From positions 32,001-96,000 of the IMG/VR virus record IMGVR_UViG_3300023184_000033: a DNA stretch of 64,000 nt. One strand, given 5' to 3'. The translations under genes and the position numbers were made by a program. The stretch comes from a virus. How positions within the stretch are numbered: position 1 is the stretch's first letter; every line of letters starts with the position of its first letter. Below the pieces are notes generated by a model that did no database searches, was not told the origin of the DNA, and saw only the letters and a list, made by a program, of their open reading frames with translations. Shown piece by piece: positions 12,514 to 32,207 of this stretch.

Positions 12514-12587
12514 TGGTTGCAGAGCCTGGAGTCGCACCAAGAACTGAGGATTATGAGTCCTCTGTGATACTGTTTCACCACCCTGCG
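12514..12587 (-). tRNA. tRNA-Met(CAT), initiator-like
   Basis: C1:A72 mismatch, CT-CAT-AA loop, encoded CCA. Confidence 0.85.
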
Positions 12588-12594
12588 ATATCAG

Positions 12595-12668
12595 TGGAGC
12601 GGGATGGGAGAATCGAACTCCCGACTTTAGCTTGGAAGGCTAAGGTAATACCATTTTACGAATCCCGC
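12595..12668 (-). tRNA. tRNA-Gly(TCC)
   Basis: Cloverleaf; GCG/CGC acceptor, U73, CCA. Confidence 0.93.
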
Positions 12669-12675
12669 AAAAAAC

Positions 12676-12740
12676 TGGAGCGGCCGCTACGATTCTCACG
12701 TAGACATTAGGTGGACCCCAATGTTGTTGAAAACGACCGC
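12676..12740 (-). ncRNA. D-armless tRNA-Gly(TCC)-like RNA (65 nt)
   Basis: GCGGTCG/CGGCCGC-TCCA acceptor, 7-bp stem with GG-TCC-AC loop, 5-bp T-arm, no D-arm. Confidence 0.75.
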
Positions 12741-12747
12741 ATAAACT

Positions 12748-12822
12748 TGGAGCGGGCAGAGAGAATCGAACTCTCAACTAAACCTTGGCAAGGTCTTGTG
12801 TTACCACTAGCACCATGCCCGC
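12748..12822 (-). tRNA. tRNA-Gly(GCC)
   Basis: Cloverleaf; TT-GCC-AA loop. Confidence 0.93.
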
Positions 12823-12833
12823 ATCTAAATTAG

Positions 12834-12862
12834 ATTGTATCTTATATATGCTTGTTTGTCAA
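12834..12862 (-). promoter_or_regulatory. sigma70 promoter for the Gly/Gly-like/Gly/fMet tRNA subcluster
   Basis: TTGACA-17 bp-TACAAT, 11 bp before tRNA-Gly(GCC). Confidence 0.8.
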
Positions 12863-12880
12863 GCGTTTCCGTGGTATACT

Positions 12881-12955
12881 TGGTGGGCCAACTTGGAATT
12901 GAACCAAGACTCAACCGATTATGAGTCGGACGCTTTACCATTAAGCTATTGGCCC
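12881..12955 (-). tRNA. tRNA-Ile2(CAT), lysidine type likely
   Basis: GGGCC acceptor and CCGAC-TCATAA-TCGG arm typical of Ile2. Confidence 0.8.
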
Positions 12956-12961
12956 ATAAAT

Positions 12962-13132
12962 TTAACGTTTAGAATTTTCTCTTTCTATTCGTTCAAATTC
13001 TGCATTTTCATTCTCAGAATCCTGAACTTGTTTTGGATCAGGTTTCCGAAAAATTGCATCGTAATTGTTTGCAAAAGTTTTCTGGTCCACACTAAATGGT
13101 CTTGGACTACTTCCTTTACCACCATCACTCAT
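12962..13132 (-). CDS. 56-aa hypothetical protein (GKGSSPRP motif)
   Basis: Hand translation MSDGGKGSSPRPFSVDQKTF...; GGAG SD. Confidence 0.7.
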   Translation of the reverse strand: MSDGGKGSSPRPFSVDQKTFANNYDAIFRKPDPKQVQDSENENAEFERIERENSKR

Positions 13133-13136
13133 TTTG

Positions 13137-13385
13137 TTACTCTCCGTAAATAAAAACTATATCATCAATTGAGATGACATAACAATCGTTTAATGTTTTA
13201 GTTGCTGCATTCCAGTTTAAAAGAACTACGTCATCAACGGCAACTGCATCGACTTCAGAACCAATAGCAATTACTTTTGCTTTATCGGCTTCTTCTGAAC
13301 GTGTGAGAATAATTCCTCCAGAAGTGGTCTTATTATTCTCTAAACGTTCAACGATTACTTTTTTTCCTAATGGTTTTAAATTCAT
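13137..13385 (-). CDS. groES: GroES-like co-chaperonin
   Basis: LKPLGKKVIV...TTSGGIIL...KVIAIG. Confidence 0.88.
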   Translation of the reverse strand: MNLKPLGKKVIVERLENNKTTSGGIILTRSEEADKAKVIAIGSEVDAVAVDDVVLLNWNAATKTLNDCYVISIDDIVFIYGE

Positions 13386-13421
13386 AATATCCTCAAAATG
13401 TTTATATGTCTTTTATATAGT

Positions 13422-13508
13422 TGGTGCGACTGGCCGGAATCGAACCGGCATGCCCTTGCGAGCGAGAGATTTTAAGTCTCTTGTGTCTACCTATTTCACC
13501 ACAGTCGC
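13422..13508 (-). tRNA. tRNA-Leu(TAA)
   Basis: Long variable arm; CT-TAA-AA loop. Confidence 0.93.
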
Positions 13509-13510
13509 TT

Positions 13511-14074
13511 CTACATTGTTGGTCCGTTGCCGTTCCTAAATCCAACTTCACCGCCTTCAGCGGTAATTCTTTTAATAACATCTTCAAAAAGAATTGGTGT
13601 AAAATCTGTTTGTTCAACACAAACACAATGATATCTAGTATCAATTTCATTGCCATTCATTACACGACCTGTATGCAGGTGTCCGTGGATGTTAACTCCA
13701 AATCGGCCAAGACTATCACTATGAATAGGAATATGTGAAAGAATCATTCCGTTCATTACATGATAAGCACGTAGTTCACGAAAATATTTCCGATATTCAT
13801 CATCACGAAAAATGTCATGGTTGCCTCGAATGAGAACTTTATCACCGTTAAGTCTACTCATAATAGGAAGAGCTTTGCGGTTGATAACTACATCACCAAG
13901 ATGATATACTTTATCGTTTGGCCGAACAGTTTCGTTCCAACGTTTAACCATTTCTTCATCCATTTCATCTGGATTGGTCCATGGTCTAATCTTTTCGTTT
14001 GTTTTAGAGTCGGTGAATCTACATACTCCAGCATGACCAAAGTGTGTGTCACTTACAAGAAATACTGCTGGCAT
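13511..14074 (-). CDS. Calcineurin-like metallophosphoesterase
   Basis: SDTHFGH, HLGD, GNHD, HGHLH. Confidence 0.9.
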   Translation of the reverse strand: MPAVFLVSDTHFGHAGVCRFTDSKTNEKIRPWTNPDEMDEEMVKRWNETVRPNDKVYHLGDVVINRKALPIMSRLNGDKVLIRGNHDIFRDDEYRKYFRELRAYHVMNGMILSHIPIHSDSLGRFGVNIHGHLHTGRVMNGNEIDTRYHCVCVEQTDFTPILFEDVIKRITAEGGEVGFRNGNGPTM

Positions 14075-14090
14075 ATAAAATCCTTTAAAA

Positions 14091-14165
14091 TGGTCCGGCC
14101 TACAGGAATCGAACCCATATTCACGGTGTAGAAGACCGCTGTATTATCCATTATACTAAGGCCGG
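14091..14165 (-). tRNA. tRNA-Arg(TCT)
   Basis: Cloverleaf; CT-TCT-AC loop. Confidence 0.9.
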
Positions 14166-14170
14166 TTGTT

Positions 14171-14247
14171 TGGTGCCCCAGAGGAGACTCGAACTCCTAA
14201 AATCTTGCTTCTAAGGCAAGCACGTATACCAATTCCGTCACCGGGGC
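14171..14247 (-). tRNA. tRNA-Leu(TAG), short variable loop
   Basis: 77 nt; CT-TAG-AA loop; A73. Confidence 0.88.
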
Positions 14248-14266
14248 AATTTGGAATAAATTGTAA

Positions 14267-14425
14267 TTATCTTGTAATTTTTCTTATCAATAATATTAAA
14301 TAATATTTTAATCCACGAAAAGGAAAAAAATCAAAGTTCATATTTGGCCACATTTCAATATGACCAACTTCATTTGGTATTCCACCATATGCTTTGTCTA
14401 GTGTTTCTTTAGTAGTATTTTTCAT
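14267..14425 (-). CDS. 52-aa hypothetical protein
   Basis: Hand translation MKNTTKETLDKAYGGIPNEVG...RKITR fills the inter-tRNA gap. Confidence 0.6.
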   Translation of the reverse strand: MKNTTKETLDKAYGGIPNEVGHIEMWPNMNFDFFPFRGLKYYLILLIRKITR

Positions 14426-14446
14426 TTCTTAATCTTTCAATAATAT

Positions 14447-14525
14447 TGGTACCCTCGCTCAGATTCGAACTGAGAGAACTCTTCTTTTTGAGAGAAGCGA
14501 CTTTACCAGATTTGTCCACGGGGGC
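14447..14525 (-). tRNA. tRNA-Leu(CAA), short variable loop
   Basis: 79 nt; CT-CAA-AA loop. Confidence 0.88.
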
Positions 14526-14529
14526 AATT

Positions 14530-14605
14530 TGGTGCAACCTAGAGGAATCGAACCTCTTTCAATGGCTCTTCAGACCACCGCTATGACCACATCAGCTAAG
14601 GTTGC
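14530..14605 (-). tRNA. tRNA-Phe(GAA)
   Basis: Cloverleaf; CT-GAA-GA loop. Confidence 0.9.
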
Positions 14606-14612
14606 ATATTCA

Positions 14613-14686
14613 TGGTACCTCGTTGGAGAATCGAACTCCCGTATGCACCGTGTAAGGATGCCGTTCTACCATTAAACTACCGAGGC
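14613..14686 (-). tRNA. tRNA-Val(TAC)
   Basis: Cloverleaf; CT-TAC-AC loop. Confidence 0.92.
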
Positions 14687-14696
14687 AAATTTACTT

Positions 14697-14770
14697 TGGG
14701 GTGACTAATGGGAGTTGAACCCATACGATCAGAATCACAATCTGAGATGCTACCGCTACATCATAGTCAC
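14697..14770 (-). tRNA. tRNA-His(GTG)
   Basis: TT-GTG-AT loop, C73; encoded -1 base is T. Confidence 0.9.
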
Positions 14771-14799
14771 ACCAAAGTAAACTTAATTACTTTGGGATT

Positions 14800-15288
14800 T
14801 TAAACTCCTACCAACTCTTGTTCAGCAAGAATACGTTTCAATCTATCTGCACAGAACGAAGCTGCAGGTGCATCTGGTTTAACCATTGGTGTCACATTAC
14901 ATGTACCTTTGATATAACCAATTGCTTGTTGTACAACACAAGAACTTCCGTGTTCTTCTGACTTGTTAAGGTCTAGATGAACTTCTACATGAAAGTCTTC
15001 TAATGTTTCTGCAAGAGATTGGAATAATTCTGAAACTTTATAAACTTCATTCATAAGCCTCATTGCAGGTTTACTTTTCTTATGGTCATAATCTAATTCA
15101 CGGTCAACAAAACCGAAAATCTTACAACCATGGCGGCCATCAATATGAACAACAACAGCTAAAGCATAGTCGGCATACCACACACCATCCACTCTAACTC
15201 TTTCTGAGTCAGCACCAAGATACACTTTAGTATCTGGTCCTTGATTAGCGAGAAATGACCTAACTTCTTCTATATCGAACTTTCTCAT
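14800..15288 (-). CDS. RNase H-like YkuK (DUF458) family protein
   Basis: VYLGADS, RLMNEV, EVHLDLN, KPDAPAASFCAD. Confidence 0.8.
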   Translation of the reverse strand: MRKFDIEEVRSFLANQGPDTKVYLGADSERVRVDGVWYADYALAVVVHIDGRHGCKIFGFVDRELDYDHKKSKPAMRLMNEVYKVSELFQSLAETLEDFHVEVHLDLNKSEEHGSSCVVQQAIGYIKGTCNVTPMVKPDAPAASFCADRLKRILAEQELVGV

Positions 15289-15311
15289 ATTGACCACCTT
15301 TTTTTAAAACT

Positions 15312-15385
15312 TGGCATCCCGCTAGGGACTCGAACCCCAACCAACGGTTTTGGAGACCGCTATGCTGCCATTACACCAGCGAGAT
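15312..15385 (-). tRNA. tRNA-Trp(CCA)
   Basis: CT-CCA-AA loop, G73. Confidence 0.92.
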
Positions 15386-15391
15386 ATATAT

Positions 15392-15465
15392 TGGTTCTCT
15401 GTAGAAGAATCGAACTTCTGTCTATCGGTTATCAGCCGATTGCTCTACCATTGAGCTAACGGAGA
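15392..15465 (-). tRNA. tRNA-Ile(GAT)
   Basis: CT-GAT-AA loop; one C-A acceptor mismatch. Confidence 0.9.
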
Positions 15466-15734
15466 AAAATGCTCTGCGAACCTCGGCGGTAATTGTAGTG
15501 CATCAGCTCTTCTCCTTTGTATCAGAGTCACATCTCACGCACCTTCCACCCGCTTCCCGACAGGTTCCGTTCTCGTATTGCCAACGCCAGTTCGGTTTAA
15601 CTGCTACATTTGACTGTAGGGACAGATTCTTTCACCAATGTTACTAAAGGTGAACCCTTGTCCGAACCACCCGTGATTAATTATTTCACTTCTCATCCTG
15701 CGGGTCACAGTAGCCACTATCACATGGCACGGTC
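15466..15734 (-). ncRNA. Unidentified multi-stem structured RNA (about 270 nt)
   Basis: GC-rich, ORF-less; nested stems CTGTGA/TCGCAG, CCCGCAGG/CCTGTCGGG, GTTCGG/CCGAAC and a GCAA tetraloop. Confidence 0.7.
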
Positions 15735-15810
15735 TGGAGGGTCATAGAGGACTCAAACCCCTAACTCAAACTTCGTAGGATTGTGTGATATTCAGTTTCA
15801 CCAACGACCC
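15735..15810 (-). tRNA. tRNA-Arg(ACG)
   Basis: CT-ACG-AA loop; overlapped by the HNH ORF 3' end. Confidence 0.82.
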
Positions 15811-16215
15811 AAATAATTTTCCTGCATGATGTTTTCTGTGACAATTTGCACACAAACAAGCACACTTATTAATTTCTTCAACAATTTGTTTTTTACTTGC
15901 TTCCGATTTATTAGAGATATTAAAATCTTTTTCATTACTGTTCATATGATGAAAATCTAAACAAGAAGTTTCAGACTCACCACATATACAACAACTTAAT
16001 GTTTCTTTTAATTTAAAAAACCATTCTTTATTTTCTTTTTTATATTTTTTTGCTCTTGTTAAATTTGTTGAATGGTGTTTGTAATAAGATTCTTTACTTT
16101 TTACCTTACGACATTCATCACAAAATGTTACTCTTTTTCCTTTTTCCTTGTTTTTAAAGGCAAACTTCTCTATTGGAAATTCTACCTCACAACAATTACA
16201 TTTTTTCTTTTCCAT
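15766..16215 (-). mobile_element. Free-standing HNH homing endonuclease-like gene
   Basis: CxxC pairs, CLDFHH...K...KCACLCANCHRKHH; own TATAAATA late promoter at 16237-16244. Confidence 0.8.
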
Positions 16216-16262
16216 ATATTCTCCTAGATATAAACTTATTTATAAAGTTCGTATCTTTGATA

Positions 16263-16338
16263 TGGTAGTGACGGAGGGAACCGAGCCCCCAACCTTTTCC
16301 GTATGAAGGAACTGCTCTGCCGGTTGAGCTACGTCACT
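16263..16338 (-). tRNA. tRNA-Met(CAT), elongator
   Basis: TT-CAT-AC loop; paired 1:72. Confidence 0.82.
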
Positions 16339-16364
16339 ATAATCGACTATAATCGACTATAATT
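16336..16364. repeat. 10-bp tandem repeat ACTATAATCG, about 3 copies
   Basis: actataatcg actataatcg actataatt spacer between tRNA-Ala and tRNA-Met. Confidence 0.85.
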
Positions 16365-16437
16365 GGTGGAGGATGGGAGAATCGAACTCCCGTAAACAGC
16401 TTGCAAAGCTGCCGTAATCCCATTATACTAATCCCCC
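16364..16437 (-). tRNA. tRNA-Ala(TGC)
   Basis: G3:U70; TT-TGC-AA loop. Confidence 0.93.
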
Positions 16438-16443
16438 ATAACT

Positions 16444-16517
16444 TGGTCTCGGTAGAAGGAATCGAACCTTCGTCACGTGGTCCCAAACCACGAATTCTGC
16501 CATTAAACTACACCGAG
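16444..16517 (-). tRNA. tRNA-Pro(TGG)
   Basis: TT-TGG-GA loop. Confidence 0.92.
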
Positions 16518-16523
16518 AAAAAC

Positions 16524-16594
16524 TGGCTCCAGTGGAAGGAATCGAACCTTCATTGGTTGTATACGGACCATGTTACCATTACATTACAACTGGA
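16524..16594 (-). ncRNA. tRNA-like RNA with aberrant anticodon arm (undetermined or pseudo-tRNA)
   Basis: Normal D-arm, T-arm and GCCA end; 3-4 bp anticodon stem with 9-nt loop CCGTATACA; bulged acceptor stem. Confidence 0.7.
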
Positions 16595-16601
16595 ATAAAC
16601 T

Positions 16602-16676
16602 TGGTGCCCCAGGAGAGAATCGAACTCCCACACCCGGATTACAAAACCGGACCTCTACCACTAAGGATACAAGGGC
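16602..16676 (-). tRNA. tRNA-Thr(TGT)
   Basis: TT-TGT-AA loop. Confidence 0.9.
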
Positions 16677-16681
16677 TATAT

Positions 16682-16760
16682 TGGCTCCGCATTAGAGAAT
16701 CGAACTCTACTAACCAGTGATTAACAGTCACGCCCATGCACCTTGCTCGGGTTCTGCGGA
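16682..16760 (-). tRNA. tRNA-Asn(GTT)
   Basis: CT-GTT-AA loop; TCC/GGA-G73. Confidence 0.9.
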
Positions 16761-16768
16761 ATAAAACT

Positions 16769-16843
16769 TGGCGGTTCTAAGGGGTAACGATCCCCTTCTT
16801 CAAGCGTGACAGGCTTGTGTGCGTCCATGAACACTTTAGAACC
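16769..16843 (-). tRNA. tRNA-Asp(GTC)
   Basis: CT-GTC-AC loop. Confidence 0.9.
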
Positions 16844-16849
16844 TAAATT

Positions 16850-16933
16850 TGGTGGATGCGGTTGGATTCGAACCAACGTGTTGTTACAACCGGATTTACA
16901 GTCCGGCACCTTCGGCCTCTCGGTCACACATCC
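16850..16933 (-). tRNA. tRNA-Tyr(GTA)
   Basis: CT-GTA-AA loop; long variable arm. Confidence 0.93.
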
Positions 16934-16939
16934 AATTTT

Positions 16940-17013
16940 TGGTAGGGGCACAGAGAATTGAACTCTGGTTAATAGGTTAAAAGCCTACTACTTTACCACT
17001 AAGTTATACCCCC
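16940..17013 (-). tRNA. tRNA-Lys(TTT)
   Basis: CT-TTT-AA loop. Confidence 0.92.
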
Positions 17014-17138
17014 ATCATTTGTTTTGCTGACGCACTATTTGCTATGCTCAACGGATTCATTTGCAAATTTACCGTTTCTGTACATAGTTACTTAGAGTTG
17101 ACGTTTACTCAATGGCTTACATCAACAAAACAAATGAT
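17014..17138 (-). ncRNA. Unidentified structured RNA (125 nt) with 21-bp closing stem
   Basis: ATCATTTGTTTTGTTGATGTA/TGCGTCAGCAAAACAAATGAT; G-U pairs work only on the - strand. Confidence 0.7.
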
Positions 17139-17139
17139 A

Positions 17140-17353
17140 CCATATTAAAATACATTAGGATGCGATTGTCGTTCCAGAACTTCATCTGGCTTCTCACGGC
17201 TTCGTCTGCCGATAAGACAATCTACACATTACGATTCAACTAATTCCAGCGCAGTCGGATTGCTTCATGTAACTTATAAGGTTCACAGCGGCCTGTGATA
17301 CGTGCCAAATAAGTCACCTACTGGAGTTGGTAACCTAATGTATTTTAATATGG
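17140..17353 (-). ncRNA. Unidentified structured RNA (about 214 nt) with 20-bp closing stem
   Basis: Perfect IR CCATATTAAAATACATTAGG; internal stems GATTGTC/GACAATC, CGGC/GCCG, CCAGA/TCTGG. Confidence 0.7.
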
Positions 17354-17426
17354 CGTCCCGTAGGGGATTCGAACCCCTGTGAATAGCGTGAAAGGCTACT
17401 ATCCTAGGCCTCTAGATGAACGGGAC
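17351..17426 (-). tRNA. tRNA-Glu(TTC)
   Basis: CT-TTC-AC loop. Confidence 0.93.
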
Positions 17427-17432
17427 AATATT

Positions 17433-17458
17433 AAATACAATCTAATTTTTAAAGAACA
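17433..17458 (-). promoter_or_regulatory. rrn-type boxA-like element, copy 2
   Basis: TGTTCTTTAAAAATTAGATTGTATTT just before tRNA-Glu; near-identical copy at 18543-18569. Confidence 0.7.
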
Positions 17459-17604
17459 TTTGCTAGTAATTTTTCAACTAGCGGCCTCGGGGATTCGATC
17501 CCTCTGCATTGCAATCAAGCACCAATGTTCCTCATTGGTTTTTGTGTTACCTGTGTTCCTCACAGGACTTGGTTGGATCAACTAATTTCTCAATCGATAC
17601 ACGT

Positions 17605-17632
17605 ATTATATACGAACCGGTTGGTTTGTCAA
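17605..17632 (-). promoter_or_regulatory. Internal sigma70 promoter of the tRNA array
   Basis: TTGACA-16 bp-TATAAT. Confidence 0.8.
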
Positions 17633-17679
17633 CCACTTTCTTGTTGTATTTTTACAACGTTGTTTTTATACAACATATA

Positions 17680-17757
17680 TGGAGGTGCAGGTGAGATTTG
17701 AACTCACGATTTTACAGTTTTGCAGGCTGTTGCCTTGGACCGCTCGGCCACTGCACC
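17680..17757 (-). tRNA. tRNA-Cys(GCA)
   Basis: CT-GCA-AA loop; U73. Confidence 0.92.
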
Positions 17758-17764
17758 ATATTTT

Positions 17765-17852
17765 TGGCAGAGAGTATGAGATTCGAACTCATGCACCGCT
17801 TTCGCAATGACGGTTTAGCAAACCGCTCCTTTAACCACTCAGGCAACTCTCT
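17765..17852 (-). tRNA. tRNA-Ser(GCT)
   Basis: TT-GCT-AA loop; long variable arm; G73. Confidence 0.92.
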
Positions 17853-17857
17853 AAACT

Positions 17858-18226
17858 TTATCCTTCTTTATTCAATGAAACACTTTCGGAATAGTAGCCG
17901 TTAGACTCACCATACCAACGAATGTCAACATAACCTTTGATAGTTGCTAGCTTGTAGAATGTCCATGTGAACGAATCTTGGTATTCTGATACTTCAGCAC
18001 CTTCTGGATTTTCATTGCTTGAAGATTCTTCAGCAACAAGCAATGGAACACCAATCAAGTCTTGAACATCACCAACAACGGACTCAACCGAAACAGATTC
18101 GCAACAATCTTGGTAATGGTACATGTTGTACACTTCACCATCAACAGTAACAAACTTAATGTTGTCACTGCCAACATCAACTTCTTTTAAAACTTTTCCT
18201 AGCAGAGATTCAAAATTTACGTACAT
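17858..18226 (-). CDS. Conserved phage hypothetical protein (QDCCESV / WYGESNGYYSE motifs)
   Basis: Start moved to MYVNF after AAGGA SD; the track start lies inside tRNA-Ser. Confidence 0.8.
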   Translation of the reverse strand: MYVNFESLLGKVLKEVDVGSDNIKFVTVDGEVYNMYHYQDCCESVSVESVVGDVQDLIGVPLLVAEESSSNENPEGAEVSEYQDSFTWTFYKLATIKGYVDIRWYGESNGYYSESVSLNKEG

Positions 18227-18245
18227 ATAATATCCTTTATAAAAA

Positions 18246-18337
18246 TGGCGGAAGACAGAGGAGTCGAACCCCATCCCATTTCTGAGAACCTGGTTTTCAA
18301 GGCCAGTCGCAGGACCATCCCCGCTGCATTATCTTCC
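18246..18337 (-). tRNA. tRNA-Ser(TGA)
   Basis: CT-TGA-AA loop; long variable arm; enlarged D-arm. Confidence 0.88.
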
Positions 18338-18339
18338 GT

Positions 18340-18470
18340 TGCCATATAGAAACTCTCTGTAGGATTTGCACCTAATTGTAACCTTATCTTCCTTGCAGGT
18401 TCTTGTATTGGTCGACTTTTACAAGTTTACTGTTTTCAAGTGTAGTTACACAGAGAGTTTTTATATGGCA
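18340..18470 (-). ncRNA. Unidentified structured RNA (about 130 nt) with a T-arm-like hairpin
   Basis: About 21-bp closing stem TGCCATATAAAAACTCTCTGT/ACAGAGAGTTTCTATATGGCA; TAGG-TGCAAAT-CCTA. Confidence 0.7.
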
Positions 18471-18539
18471 GGGGATACAAGAATCGAACTTGTACTAACA
18501 GATTCAAAGTCTGCTGTGCTACCACTACACAAATCCCCA
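18466..18539 (-). tRNA. tRNA-Gln(TTG), first tRNA of the array
   Basis: CT-TTG-AA loop. Confidence 0.92.
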
Positions 18540-30495: not shown

Positions 30496-32207
30496 TTTTC
30501 AATCCTACTAAAATTGTTTTTCTTGCCAAACTTAATTACACTACGGAACTTATCAAATAGTTGGTCACCCTTATGAGAGATAACAAACACATTTGTATCA
30601 ATACCAATTTCGTGTATCAGCTTTAAAAATTCTTCAGTGCCTACAGTATCCAAAGAAGAATCAAACACTTCATCCAAAATCAATAGATTGGTATTGGTAC
30701 TATTCTTTAGTTTTGCAATCTGTCTCCATGTAAACAATAGAGCCAGATCGATACGCATCTTTTCACCCTCGGAGAAGTTTGCATAAGAGAAATCATCACG
30801 GTGTCTACTCTTAATTGTTTCTTCAAAATTCTCATTGATGTTAAAGTTAACAAAGAAGTCCATTGCAGTTAGGTACTTGTTAATTAACTTGTTCATAACT
30901 GGCAAATACTGTTTGATGATTCTGGTTTTGATACCCGTATCTTTCAACAGATTACTTGCAAATTCGTTGTATTGTTTTTCAATTAATAGTTCTTTGTATG
31001 TTTGATTGTATCCATCCAGTTCAACTTTCAAGTCTTTTAACTTTTGGTTTTCTTCTTCAAGGTTGTCTTTGCGTATGGATAACTCGCCAACTTCTGCTTG
31101 AATTTTGGCAATATATTTGTTTACTGCCGAGATGGTAGAATTGTGTTTTACAATCTCATTGTTATGTTCTTGGACATGTTTAACTATTTTTTGGATTTCT
31201 TCGATTCTTGCATTTGCTTTTTGGATTTGTCCCTCGATATCTTTAACTGCAAGGCTAACCGTTCCCTTTGTTTGATTGATTCCACTAAGCTGGCTATGTC
31301 TGAAGGTGTCAGCGATATCCTGCTTACAGGTTGGACAGGAGTGATTTTCATCGTAGAACTTTTCCTCTTTATCAAGTTTTTTAAGTTTAGATTCCAGTTT
31401 AGATTCTAATTGTAATAATTTAGAACTTTTCTTTTCGATTAATAATTTGTCCGAAATCTTATTTTGCAGTATATCAATGTGTTTATTGATTAATACAATC
31501 TCTTTATTTAATTTATCAATCTGTTGTTCAGACTCAATGATTTCATTTTTCTTTTTATCAATTTCGGCATCATTGTGTTTCTTATGTTCGTCAATATTAT
31601 GTTTTTGCAGTTCAATTTTTTCACCTGCAAGCACCATATCGTATTTGCTTTTGGTAAGATTTTCTTTTACAATAGACATACGTTCCTTCACAAGATTATT
31701 CATCGAGGAAAAGATTTGAATGTCTAGAAGGTCCTCAATGATTGTTCTTCGGTCTGATGAAGACAATTGCATGAACGGAGTGAATGATGCTGAACCAAGA
31801 ATAACAACCTGCGTAAAAGACTTATAGTTTAGTTTAAGAATTGAATTCTCTAATATGTCTTGATAGTCTTTAGCAGCTGCATCTTGATTCAGCAAAACAG
31901 AATCGCAGTAAATCTCAAACACGTTAGGTTTAATACCACGAACAATTTTATAGTTCTTTTGACCAATCTTTAATTCAATTTCAACAATACAATCACGTTG
32001 ATTAATTGAGTTCAACAGTTGTGGTTTATTAATTTTACGGAAAGGTTTTCCAAAAAGACCAAAACATAAGGCATCCAGAATTGTGGATTTGCCTGCACCA
32101 TTATGTCCAATCACAAGAGTGTTTGGAGATTTGGTTAAACTAATTTCGGTAAAGGCGGCACCTGTACTTAAAAAATTACGCCATCTAACTTTTTCAAATA
32201 AAATCAT
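30492..32207 (-). CDS. 46: gp46 recombination ATPase (Rad50-like)
   Basis: GHNGAGKS, CPTC hook, FSEGE, LILDE. Confidence 0.97.
   Translation of the reverse strand: MILFEKVRWRNFLSTGAAFTEISLTKSPNTLVIGHNGAGKSTILDALCFGLFGKPFRKINKPQLLNSINQRDCIVEIELKIGQKNYKIVRGIKPNVFEIYCDSVLLNQDAAAKDYQDILENSILKLNYKSFTQVVILGSASFTPFMQLSSSDRRTIIEDLLDIQIFSSMNNLVKERMSIVKENLTKSKYDMVLAGEKIELQKHNIDEHKKHNDAEIDKKKNEIIESEQQIDKLNKEIVLINKHIDILQNKISDKLLIEKKSSKLLQLESKLESKLKKLDKEEKFYDENHSCPTCKQDIADTFRHSQLSGINQTKGTVSLAVKDIEGQIQKANARIEEIQKIVKHVQEHNNEIVKHNSTISAVNKYIAKIQAEVGELSIRKDNLEEENQKLKDLKVELDGYNQTYKELLIEKQYNEFASNLLKDTGIKTRIIKQYLPVMNKLINKYLTAMDFFVNFNINENFEETIKSRHRDDFSYANFSEGEKMRIDLALLFTWRQIAKLKNSTNTNLLILDEVFDSSLDTVGTEEFLKLIHEIGIDTNVFVISHKGDQLFDKFRSVIKFGKKNNFSRIEK

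Follow-up and report, generated by a model that had tools for sequence, protein, structure and literature searches.

A structured RNA gene within a phage tRNA array

What is encoded by a stretch of 269 bp that lies, without any spacer, between two tRNA genes of an uncultured phage? We addressed this question in a window of 64,000 nt (positions 32,001–96,000 of the IMG/VR virus record IMGVR_UViG_3300023184_000033), where a first-pass annotation had placed a large and possibly unclassified non-coding RNA. The source record has a length of 163.8 kb, is 98%-complete and contains the T4-like myovirus genes for DNA polymerase, major head, portal, sheath and terminase. An array of 25 tRNA genes, all on the minus strand, was revealed in the window by ARAGORN at positions 12514–18539.

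The RNA gene (15466–15734, minus strand, 269 nt) fills exactly the slot between the upstream tRNA-Arg(ACG) with its encoded CCA (15735–15810, minus) and the downstream tRNA-Ile(GAT) (15392–15465, minus). Both tRNAs were detected by ARAGORN and by the Rfam tRNA model, the latter giving 69.6 bits for tRNA-Ile. The spacing is 0 nt on either side, and the 3' end of tRNA-Arg sets the 5' end of the RNA; thus, the limits originally proposed, directly after the CCA of tRNA-Arg and up to tRNA-Ile, proved to be exact. Since both spacer-free tRNA neighbors are on the minus strand, the RNA is to be read on this strand too.

Two other properties ascribed to this stretch, a high GC content and the lack of ORFs, were also borne out. 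Its G+C content (0.45–0.49) is like that of the tRNAs, as compared with 0.23–0.41 in the flanking coding DNA. No ORF of at least 40 aa is present on the RNA strand of 15466–15734, and the sole ORFs, two of 45–49 aa, are located on the opposite strand.

It should be mentioned that a cysteine-rich ORF of 149 aa without a Pfam family was found at 15766–16215 (minus), between tRNA-Met and tRNA-Arg, and that the last 45 nt of this ORF lie within tRNA-Arg. Such an ORF might represent an insert of the homing-endonuclease type; alternatively, its stop codon may have been called wrongly.

Distribution of the RNA family

Eighty related phage loci were fetched with the neighboring RNaseH-like (DUF458) gene as a handle, and a homolog of the RNA was present in 36 of them (nhmmer). 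The invariant 18-nt strand of the RNA (nt 174–191) served as the search pattern in contig scans. A search with an invariant 19-mer revealed at least 119 IMG/VR contigs carrying the RNA, some of them 200–520 kb in length, and a more specific two-part pattern revealed at least 120 metagenome contigs. In total, the family comprises at least 200 distinct sequences from IMG/VR and metagenome contigs, forming 156 clusters at 95% identity. The length varies from 182 to 286 nt in 111 viral-contig sequences and is usually about 205 nt, versus 269 nt in the window. All members originate from a single broad assemblage of uncultured phages known from metagenomes, and they are related to one another.

A covariance model of the family, R1, matches the window copy with 195 bits and an E-value of about 5e-62 (E-values of this model are rough), with model positions 1–213 all covered. 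An R1 search revealed a single copy in the phage's own 164-kb genome. The window copy combines the features by which the family is defined, namely a full-length R1 match, the invariant junction of the 3' domain and three covarying tertiary helices.

Among cultured phages, no match was found in 50,697 records (blastn with the window copy and a short-form copy as queries), and R1 detected no copy in the whole genomes of phages T4, Stenotrophomonas DLP_6, Synechococcus BUCT-ZZ01, Rhizobium RHph_I1_18 and Xanthomonas X1. When 185,579 bacterial and archaeal genomes were scanned with the invariant 19-mer, at least 120 matches were obtained. We rejected these as RNA copies and consider them chance matches, because the flanks are not shared (about 70 sites inspected, all in unrelated G+C-rich DNA) and because in each of the 120 matches listed the family profile matches at the motif only. 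Eighteen of these sites were compared with Rfam and no family was found there. Thus, no bacterial copy of the RNA is present among the matches listed, which is weak evidence of absence.

Comparative evidence for the fold

The folding energy of the window sequence alone is not above chance (z = -1.04 against dinucleotide shuffles). The evidence for the structure is comparative and comes from a MAFFT alignment of 107 distinct sequences (A1). RNAalifold predicted 40 pairs on this alignment, 27 of them with compensatory changes. The structure that we propose consists of seven nested helices, three loop-mediated tertiary helices and one isolated tertiary pair.

On A1, 97.5% of the cells of this structure are paired, as against 34–49% when the partners are slid by 1–3 columns. 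Compensatory (double) changes were found in 32 of the 41 pairs, the covariation score is 0.514 versus 0.06–0.10 for slid partners, and none of 500 shuffles reached the observed pairing and covariation values; kinship among the sequences inflates the shuffle test, while the slid controls are unaffected by it. When the tertiary pairs are counted alone, 95.8% of the cells are paired against 25–59% for slid partners. A second alignment, fitted to the nested helices of R1 only and composed mostly of metagenome sequences outside A1, gave 93.3% against 26–59% for the same tertiary pairs.

The tertiary helices PK1 and PK2 had been proposed from A1. In the second alignment PK1 changes from A-U to G-C in five sequences and from C-G to A-U in eight. 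In A1, L178 and L083, the two members that diverge most, have exchanged complete strands of PK1 and PK2 while preserving the pairing. Mutual information, used without any prior assumption, recovered the kissing pairs between hairpins H1 and H2 (PK3), a tertiary pair at hairpin H4 and an extension of helix H5 by two pairs. About 49 alignment columns, mostly in the junctions, are invariant in A1. Helix P6 and the junctions are invariant too, and the pairing of P6 and the junction contacts give no covariation signal either way.

The helix map of the first-pass annotation was confirmed in part, much of it being wrong. Three of its helices, GGACA/TGTCC, TTCACC/GGTGAA and CTACA/TGTAG, belong to a peripheral insertion and are kept by compensatory changes in the relatives that bear it, and hairpin H4 is real too. 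The long-range helices CTGTGA/TCGCAG, CCCGCAGG/CCTGTCGGG and GTTCGG/CCGAAC did not stand: their covariation score of 0.058 equals the mean of the shuffles (0.056), pairing is as good in 375 of 500 shuffles and single pairs are broken in up to 95 of the 107 sequences. The strands assigned to these three helices actually belong to Hb, H5, PK2 and H3. Pairing between CGGGTGG and ACCGCC is possible, with both strands invariant in the family.

The comparative data also bear on the idea that the stretch represents decayed tRNA genes or a small protein gene and has no function at the RNA level. The RNA does occupy tRNA slots, its core is close to three tRNA lengths and short ORFs exist on the opposite strand. 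However, neither ARAGORN nor the Rfam tRNA model detects a tRNA within it, its conservation is far above neutral, and the opposite-strand ORFs of 45–49 aa are broken by hairpin indels. Since whole hairpins are gained or lost and the stems change by compensation, the RNA is not coding, and decay or a protein gene is almost certainly the wrong explanation. Taken together, sequence comparison indicates that 15466–15734 is a real gene of a tightly folded, multiply knotted non-coding RNA.

Structural elements of the RNA

The whole gene (15466–15734) is composed of a core of about 205 nt and a lineage-specific insertion of 62 nt, as judged from R1 and nhmmer. All elements described below are on the minus strand and are numbered from the 5' end of the RNA. 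The 5' domain consists of four hairpins locked together by three tertiary helices, in which the loops of H1 and H2 kiss and GGGUGGU, a single strand, connects the Hb loop with that of H3.

Hairpin H1 (nt 7–22; 15713–15728) shows compensatory changes in all five stem pairs. Its loop nucleotides 14–16 kiss the loop of H2, forming PK3 (G14-U56, A15-U55 and U16-A54 in the window), the first pair of which is G-C in 43 cases and A-U in 40. Hairpin Hb (nt 25–37; 15698–15710) has three covarying stem pairs with 99.3% of cells paired and carries an ACC loop. This loop pairs with GGGU at nt 63–66 to form PK1 (A30-U66, C31-G65 and C32-G64 in the window), which is paired in 99.7% of cells and in which A-U is replaced by G-C and C-G by A-U or U-A. 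The purine-rich junction between Hb and H2 (nt 38–46; 15689–15697) has conserved ends and a middle of variable length in A1. All four stem pairs covary in H2 (nt 47–61; 15674–15688), the loop of which is the partner of the H1 loop. The bridging strand GGGUGGU (nt 63–69; 15666–15672) follows; its GGGU is bound to the Hb loop (PK1) and its GGU to the H3 loop (PK2; G67-C141, G68-C140 and U69-A139 in the window), each of the two helices being paired in at least 99% of cells.

Between the bridging strand and H3 the window copy contains the peripheral insertion of 62 nt with two hairpins (nt 70–131; 15604–15665), which was delimited by comparison of the insertion-bearing relatives. Insertions at this point were found in about 30 of 200 members and have at least four architectures, and most members lack any. 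Compensatory changes preserve these hairpins, and a GNRA loop often caps the second one. A fixed core with a variable periphery is typical of large functional RNAs. Hairpin H3 (nt 132–147; 15588–15603) presents the ACC of PK2 at 15594–15596 in its loop, and four of its five stem pairs covary.

The 3' domain is built of a T-loop-like hairpin and a long-range helix around an invariant purine-rich junction and a variable hairpin. The T-loop-like hairpin is H4 (15574–15586), composed of a 3-bp stem, in which C-G changes to U-A in 31 of the 107 sequences, and a 7-nt loop, UGGCAAU. It had been reported as a hairpin with a GCAA tetraloop; the helix exists and the loop is of seven nucleotides. The final loop base is bound to an A seven bases further downstream (15570); this is the isolated tertiary pair U158-A165 of the window. 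This pair is U-A in 98 and C-G in nine sequences of A1, with no exceptions, and U-A in 87 and C-G in 13 on the second alignment.

The long-range helix H5 is formed by a 5' strand (nt 166–173; 15562–15569) and a 3' strand (nt 252–261; 15474–15483), with five of six pairs covarying; the two further pairs of its extension covary as well. H5 encloses the invariant purine-rich strand, P6, the variable hairpin Hv and an invariant A/U-rich junction. The invariant strand of 18 nt (nt 174–191; 15544–15561) contains the 5' half of P6 together with junction bases rich in purines; within the family, conservation is highest here, as judged from the 107 sequences of A1. Hv (nt 192–238; 15497–15543) has a 6-bp closing stem, five pairs of which covary, with 98.9% of cells paired, and its length in A1 ranges from about 18 to about 100 nt. 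The A/U-rich junction and the 3' half of P6 (nt 239–251; 15484–15496) are invariant in A1, and RNAalifold pairs them with nt 176–185. The gene ends with a single-stranded tail (15466–15473), which terminates in a run of U and is at the same time the 5' leader of tRNA-Ile.

The RNA behaves as an optional cassette of tRNA slots

We next consider the position of the RNA in other phages. All flanking tRNAs found by ARAGORN are on the strand of the RNA. At the 5' end, a tRNA is at most 15 nt away in 99 of 120 cases, and at the 3' end this holds for 76 of 111; about a third of the members have no adjacent downstream tRNA. Across the family, the RNA is found between more than 35 different pairs of tRNAs, and the slots fully filled by it among the related loci include Arg/Ile, Asn/Thr, Asn/Ala and Ala/Met. 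In a minority of members no tRNA is present within 500 nt, and some of these copies are at contig ends.

The Arg(ACG)/Ile(GAT) junction itself was compared in 63 related loci and proved to be bimodal: 4–8 nt in 45 of them, 204–245 nt in 17 and 132 nt in one. A 100%-complete relative of 172 kb has the same gene order, an identical tRNA-Arg and a junction of 5 nt, with no copy of the RNA elsewhere. The RNA is therefore dispensable for the tRNA array. Other relatives hold it in a different slot, so that it behaves as a cassette moving between tRNA slots. Thus, the RNA is an accessory, optional cassette in a tRNA slot.

It could also be imagined that the RNA acts only in cis, as a spacer that insulates the precursor against misfolding or orders its cleavage and has no function after release. 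It is indeed found almost only inside tRNA arrays, co-oriented with them. A mere spacer is nevertheless quite unlikely: most array junctions, among them this very Arg/Ile junction in 45 relatives, measure only 4–8 nt; a spacer would not call for about 49 invariant bases or for as many as three tertiary helices; a genome has one copy however many tRNA junctions it contains; and some members have no tRNA within 500 nt.

The RNA has no fixed protein neighbor, the commonest protein family being present in 36 of 110 loci. The commonest neighbors are RNaseH-like DUF458, metallophosphoesterase, GroES, dCMP deaminase, RpoZ and Hsp20, each in a third of the loci at most, and they are residents of tRNA arrays, not companions of the RNA.

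As a separate observation, comparison of locus L058 (9746–9900), which comes from the complete relative devoid of the RNA, with the window (15392–15810) revealed 100% identical tRNA-Arg(ACG) genes and, across the junction, clearly different tRNA-Ile(GAT) genes. In these two sequences, such a contrast would fit recombination break-points at tRNA boundaries.

Comparison with known RNA families

None of the 4227 models of Rfam 15 matched the RNA of the window at the gathering threshold, nor at E ≤ 10 with permissive filters. The same search of ten relatives, including the two most divergent ones, gave only tRNAs and noise at E ≤ 10. At the sensitivity of the models, this covers RNase P, tmRNA, group I and II introns, GOLLD, ROOL, raiA, YrlA and self-cleaving ribozymes, in agreement with the first-pass annotation, which had seen no hallmarks of RNase P, tmRNA or introns. 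No tmRNA (tRNA-like domain and tag frame) was found by ARAGORN, and matches of the permuted-tmRNA model were all sub-threshold and spanned the neighboring tRNAs. We found no description of the family in the literature, nor in the text of a catalog of 10,006 phage RNA candidates (PMC10690425). Thus, the family matches no catalogued RNA family. The suggestion of a large, possibly unclassified RNA within the tRNA array was well founded: homologs fill tRNA slots in hundreds of phage contigs, the fold covaries, and no family of Rfam 15 matches.

The closest analogs by position are rnaC (species 1, 139 nt) and rnaD (species 2, 119 nt) of phage T4, which are likewise non-coding RNAs of unknown function in a T4-type tRNA cluster. 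They directly follow a tRNA (tRNA-Arg in T4), on the tRNA strand and with spacers of a few bases, as does the RNA described here. Since the T4 RNAs and our RNA share this same-strand, near-abutting position, all of them are presumably released by tRNA processing. They differ in other respects: rnaC carries a tRNA-like T-arm close to the 3' end and rnaD a terminal CCA, whereas the RNA studied here has neither, ends in a U-rich tail, has about double the length and contains several pseudoknots. R1 gave nothing at E ≤ 10 at rnaC or rnaD, and in the whole T4 genome there was one chance match elsewhere (6.5 bits, E 2.8). The comparison with the T4 RNAs, GOLLD and ROOL made at the outset is thus an apt analogy of position and does not extend to homology.

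GOLLD and ROOL are large ornate pseudoknotted RNAs of phages and prophages that are often located by tRNA islands and form multimeric cages (PMC12286853). They measure 500–800 nt or more, versus about 205–270 nt in our family, which neither model matches, and they are found in cultured bacteria and prophages, whereas our family was seen in uncultured phage contigs only. By analogy with them the RNA might form an RNA-only homo-oligomer, in which some of the loop-loop pairs, e.g., H1-H2, would be intermolecular; the three covarying loop-mediated helices would suit such a state, since covariation is blind to the difference between intra- and intermolecular pairs. We consider this unlikely, as ROOL and GOLLD exceed the RNA three- to fourfold in size and all three tertiary helices fit one molecule without topological conflict.

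Bacterial RNase P (RF00010) is likewise a tRNA-associated structured RNA with variable peripheral hairpins. An invariant purine-rich word of 9 nt beside Hv, the fifth base of which varies between A and G, resembles the J12/13 consensus of RF00010, which belongs to the specificity-domain module (J11/12-P12-J12/13) docking the tRNA elbow. In our RNA, however, it is located 5' of the variable hairpin, while in RNase P it lies 3' of P12, and the topology of the helices differs. The P4 core and the catalytic-core words (CR-I and CR-V) of the RF00010 consensus are absent from our RNA, and none of the RNase P models (class A, class B, archaeal and type T) matched the window copy or the ten relatives at E ≤ 10. 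The J12/13 likeness, noticed by comparison of sequences, is treated here as no more than a resemblance.

These data are relevant to the possibility that the RNA is a ribozyme acting on the tRNA precursor, either a miniature RNase-P-like molecule that docks tRNAs or a self-cleaver liberating itself and its neighbors, which would make maturation of the phage tRNAs less dependent on host enzymes. Its size, its many invariant junction bases and its variable peripheral hairpins are typical of ribozymes, it directly abuts tRNAs, and the J12/13-like word could be read in the same way. On the other hand, no self-cleaving family matched the window copy or the ten relatives at E ≤ 10, the likeness is on the opposite side of the variable hairpin as compared with RNase P, about a third of the members lack an adjacent downstream tRNA, and the complete relative with the same tRNAs manages without the RNA. 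Catalysis of this kind is in our opinion very unlikely. The label "ribozyme-sized", given in the first-pass annotation, is correct as to length, and none of these results shows catalysis.

Several candidate motifs were considered by eye and rejected. A hammerhead core at the word GAUGAG was dismissed because this junction varies in sequence and length across the family, a kink-turn at Hb/H1 because the partner G is not conserved, and a sarcin-ricin-like word after H4 because it is variable. A tRNA with an intron was rejected too, since both flanking tRNAs are complete.

Probable biogenesis and function

In the region 14600–16500 promoter-like sites are not above chance and terminator-like sites are absent, and the ends of the RNA leave no room for either. 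Co-transcription with the tRNAs and release by processing of tRNA ends is for this reason the simplest reading. A TATAAT-like invariant word was rejected as an internal promoter: it has no -35 element, there is no excess of promoter sites, and it sits in an RNA junction between covarying helices. According to the proposed scheme, the RNA would be transcribed within the polycistronic tRNA precursor, maturation of the 3' end of tRNA-Arg would create its 5' end, and the RNase P cut at the 5' end of tRNA-Ile, with U at position -1, would create its 3' end. Here we infer transcription, processing and stability of the RNA from the arrangement of the genes.

An essential role in tRNA maturation is disfavored by the fact that the RNA is single-copy, accessory and missing from a complete relative, and an optional trans-acting RNA with a specific partner is therefore favored. 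The about 49 invariant bases, mostly junctional, may form a specific binding site or an active site. Most likely, the RNA would bind a host or phage factor and thereby support or protect translation or the tRNA supply during infection, an accessory role that it would share with the tRNA array. The link to translation or tRNA metabolism is plausibly suggested by the neighboring genes. Overall, we consider it likely that the gene encodes a stand-alone, trans-acting structured RNA of an uncatalogued phage family, with the biogenesis, fold and accessory role outlined above.

A bolder reading, to which we give a small chance, is that the RNA is a functional machine of its own, such as a small ribozyme, an oligomer built of RNA only, or a scaffold or decoy on which tRNAs dock. 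Phages would trade it between slots as an optional module that protects or re-tools translation against host defenses directed at tRNAs.

Other elements of the array

Some other elements came to light in the course of the analysis. The segment 17014–17350 (minus, 337 nt), located between tRNA-Glu and tRNA-Lys, has no ORF of at least 40 aa on the tRNA strand and is conserved in 72 nhmmer matches among the fetched phage loci. RNAalifold predicts two domains in it, each closed by a long stem, and no Rfam family matches it at the gathering threshold; the segment probably represents another orphan structured RNA, the second in this array.

A conserved non-coding element of about 150–240 nt was found directly downstream of the knotted RNA in L117 (5666–5903), L084 and eight other contigs. 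It precedes tRNA-Cys, tRNA-Asp or tRNA-Lys, has an A/U-rich closing stem of 16 bp and is absent from the window. The inter-tRNA gaps at 16677–16768, 12669–12747 and 18275–18465 are conserved in 17–53 other loci, and some of them may be tRNAs missed by ARAGORN.

The gene of the RNaseH-like protein (PF04308/DUF458) is located at 14800–15297 (minus) and is also found in the tRNA arrays of the cultured phages DLP_6 and X1. In Rhizobium phage RHph_I1_18 a DUF458 gene lies beside the genes of a CCA-adding enzyme, a tRNA-His guanylyltransferase and an RNA ligase. This suggests that the DUF458 protein is an uncharacterised factor of tRNA maturation or repair.

Implications for phage tRNA arrays

Orphan structured RNAs located by phage tRNAs, such as T4 species 1 and 2, GOLLD and ROOL, have been unexplained for decades. 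The family described here adds to them a compact example of about 205 nt, which is easily synthesised and has a tertiary fold densely backed by covariation and a sharply bounded invariant core. Near-identical phages with and without the RNA represent a natural polymorphism, suited both to structural work and to a clean genetic test. The family also indicates that phages exploit the tRNA slots of their arrays for the expression and processing of cargo RNAs besides tRNAs. If the RNA binds tRNAs, ribosomes or a defense nuclease, it would represent a new layer of the conflict between phage and host over translation. If it is a machine of its own, tRNA arrays would carry, beyond their stores of tRNAs, a hidden repertoire of RNAs that are catalytic or counter host defenses.
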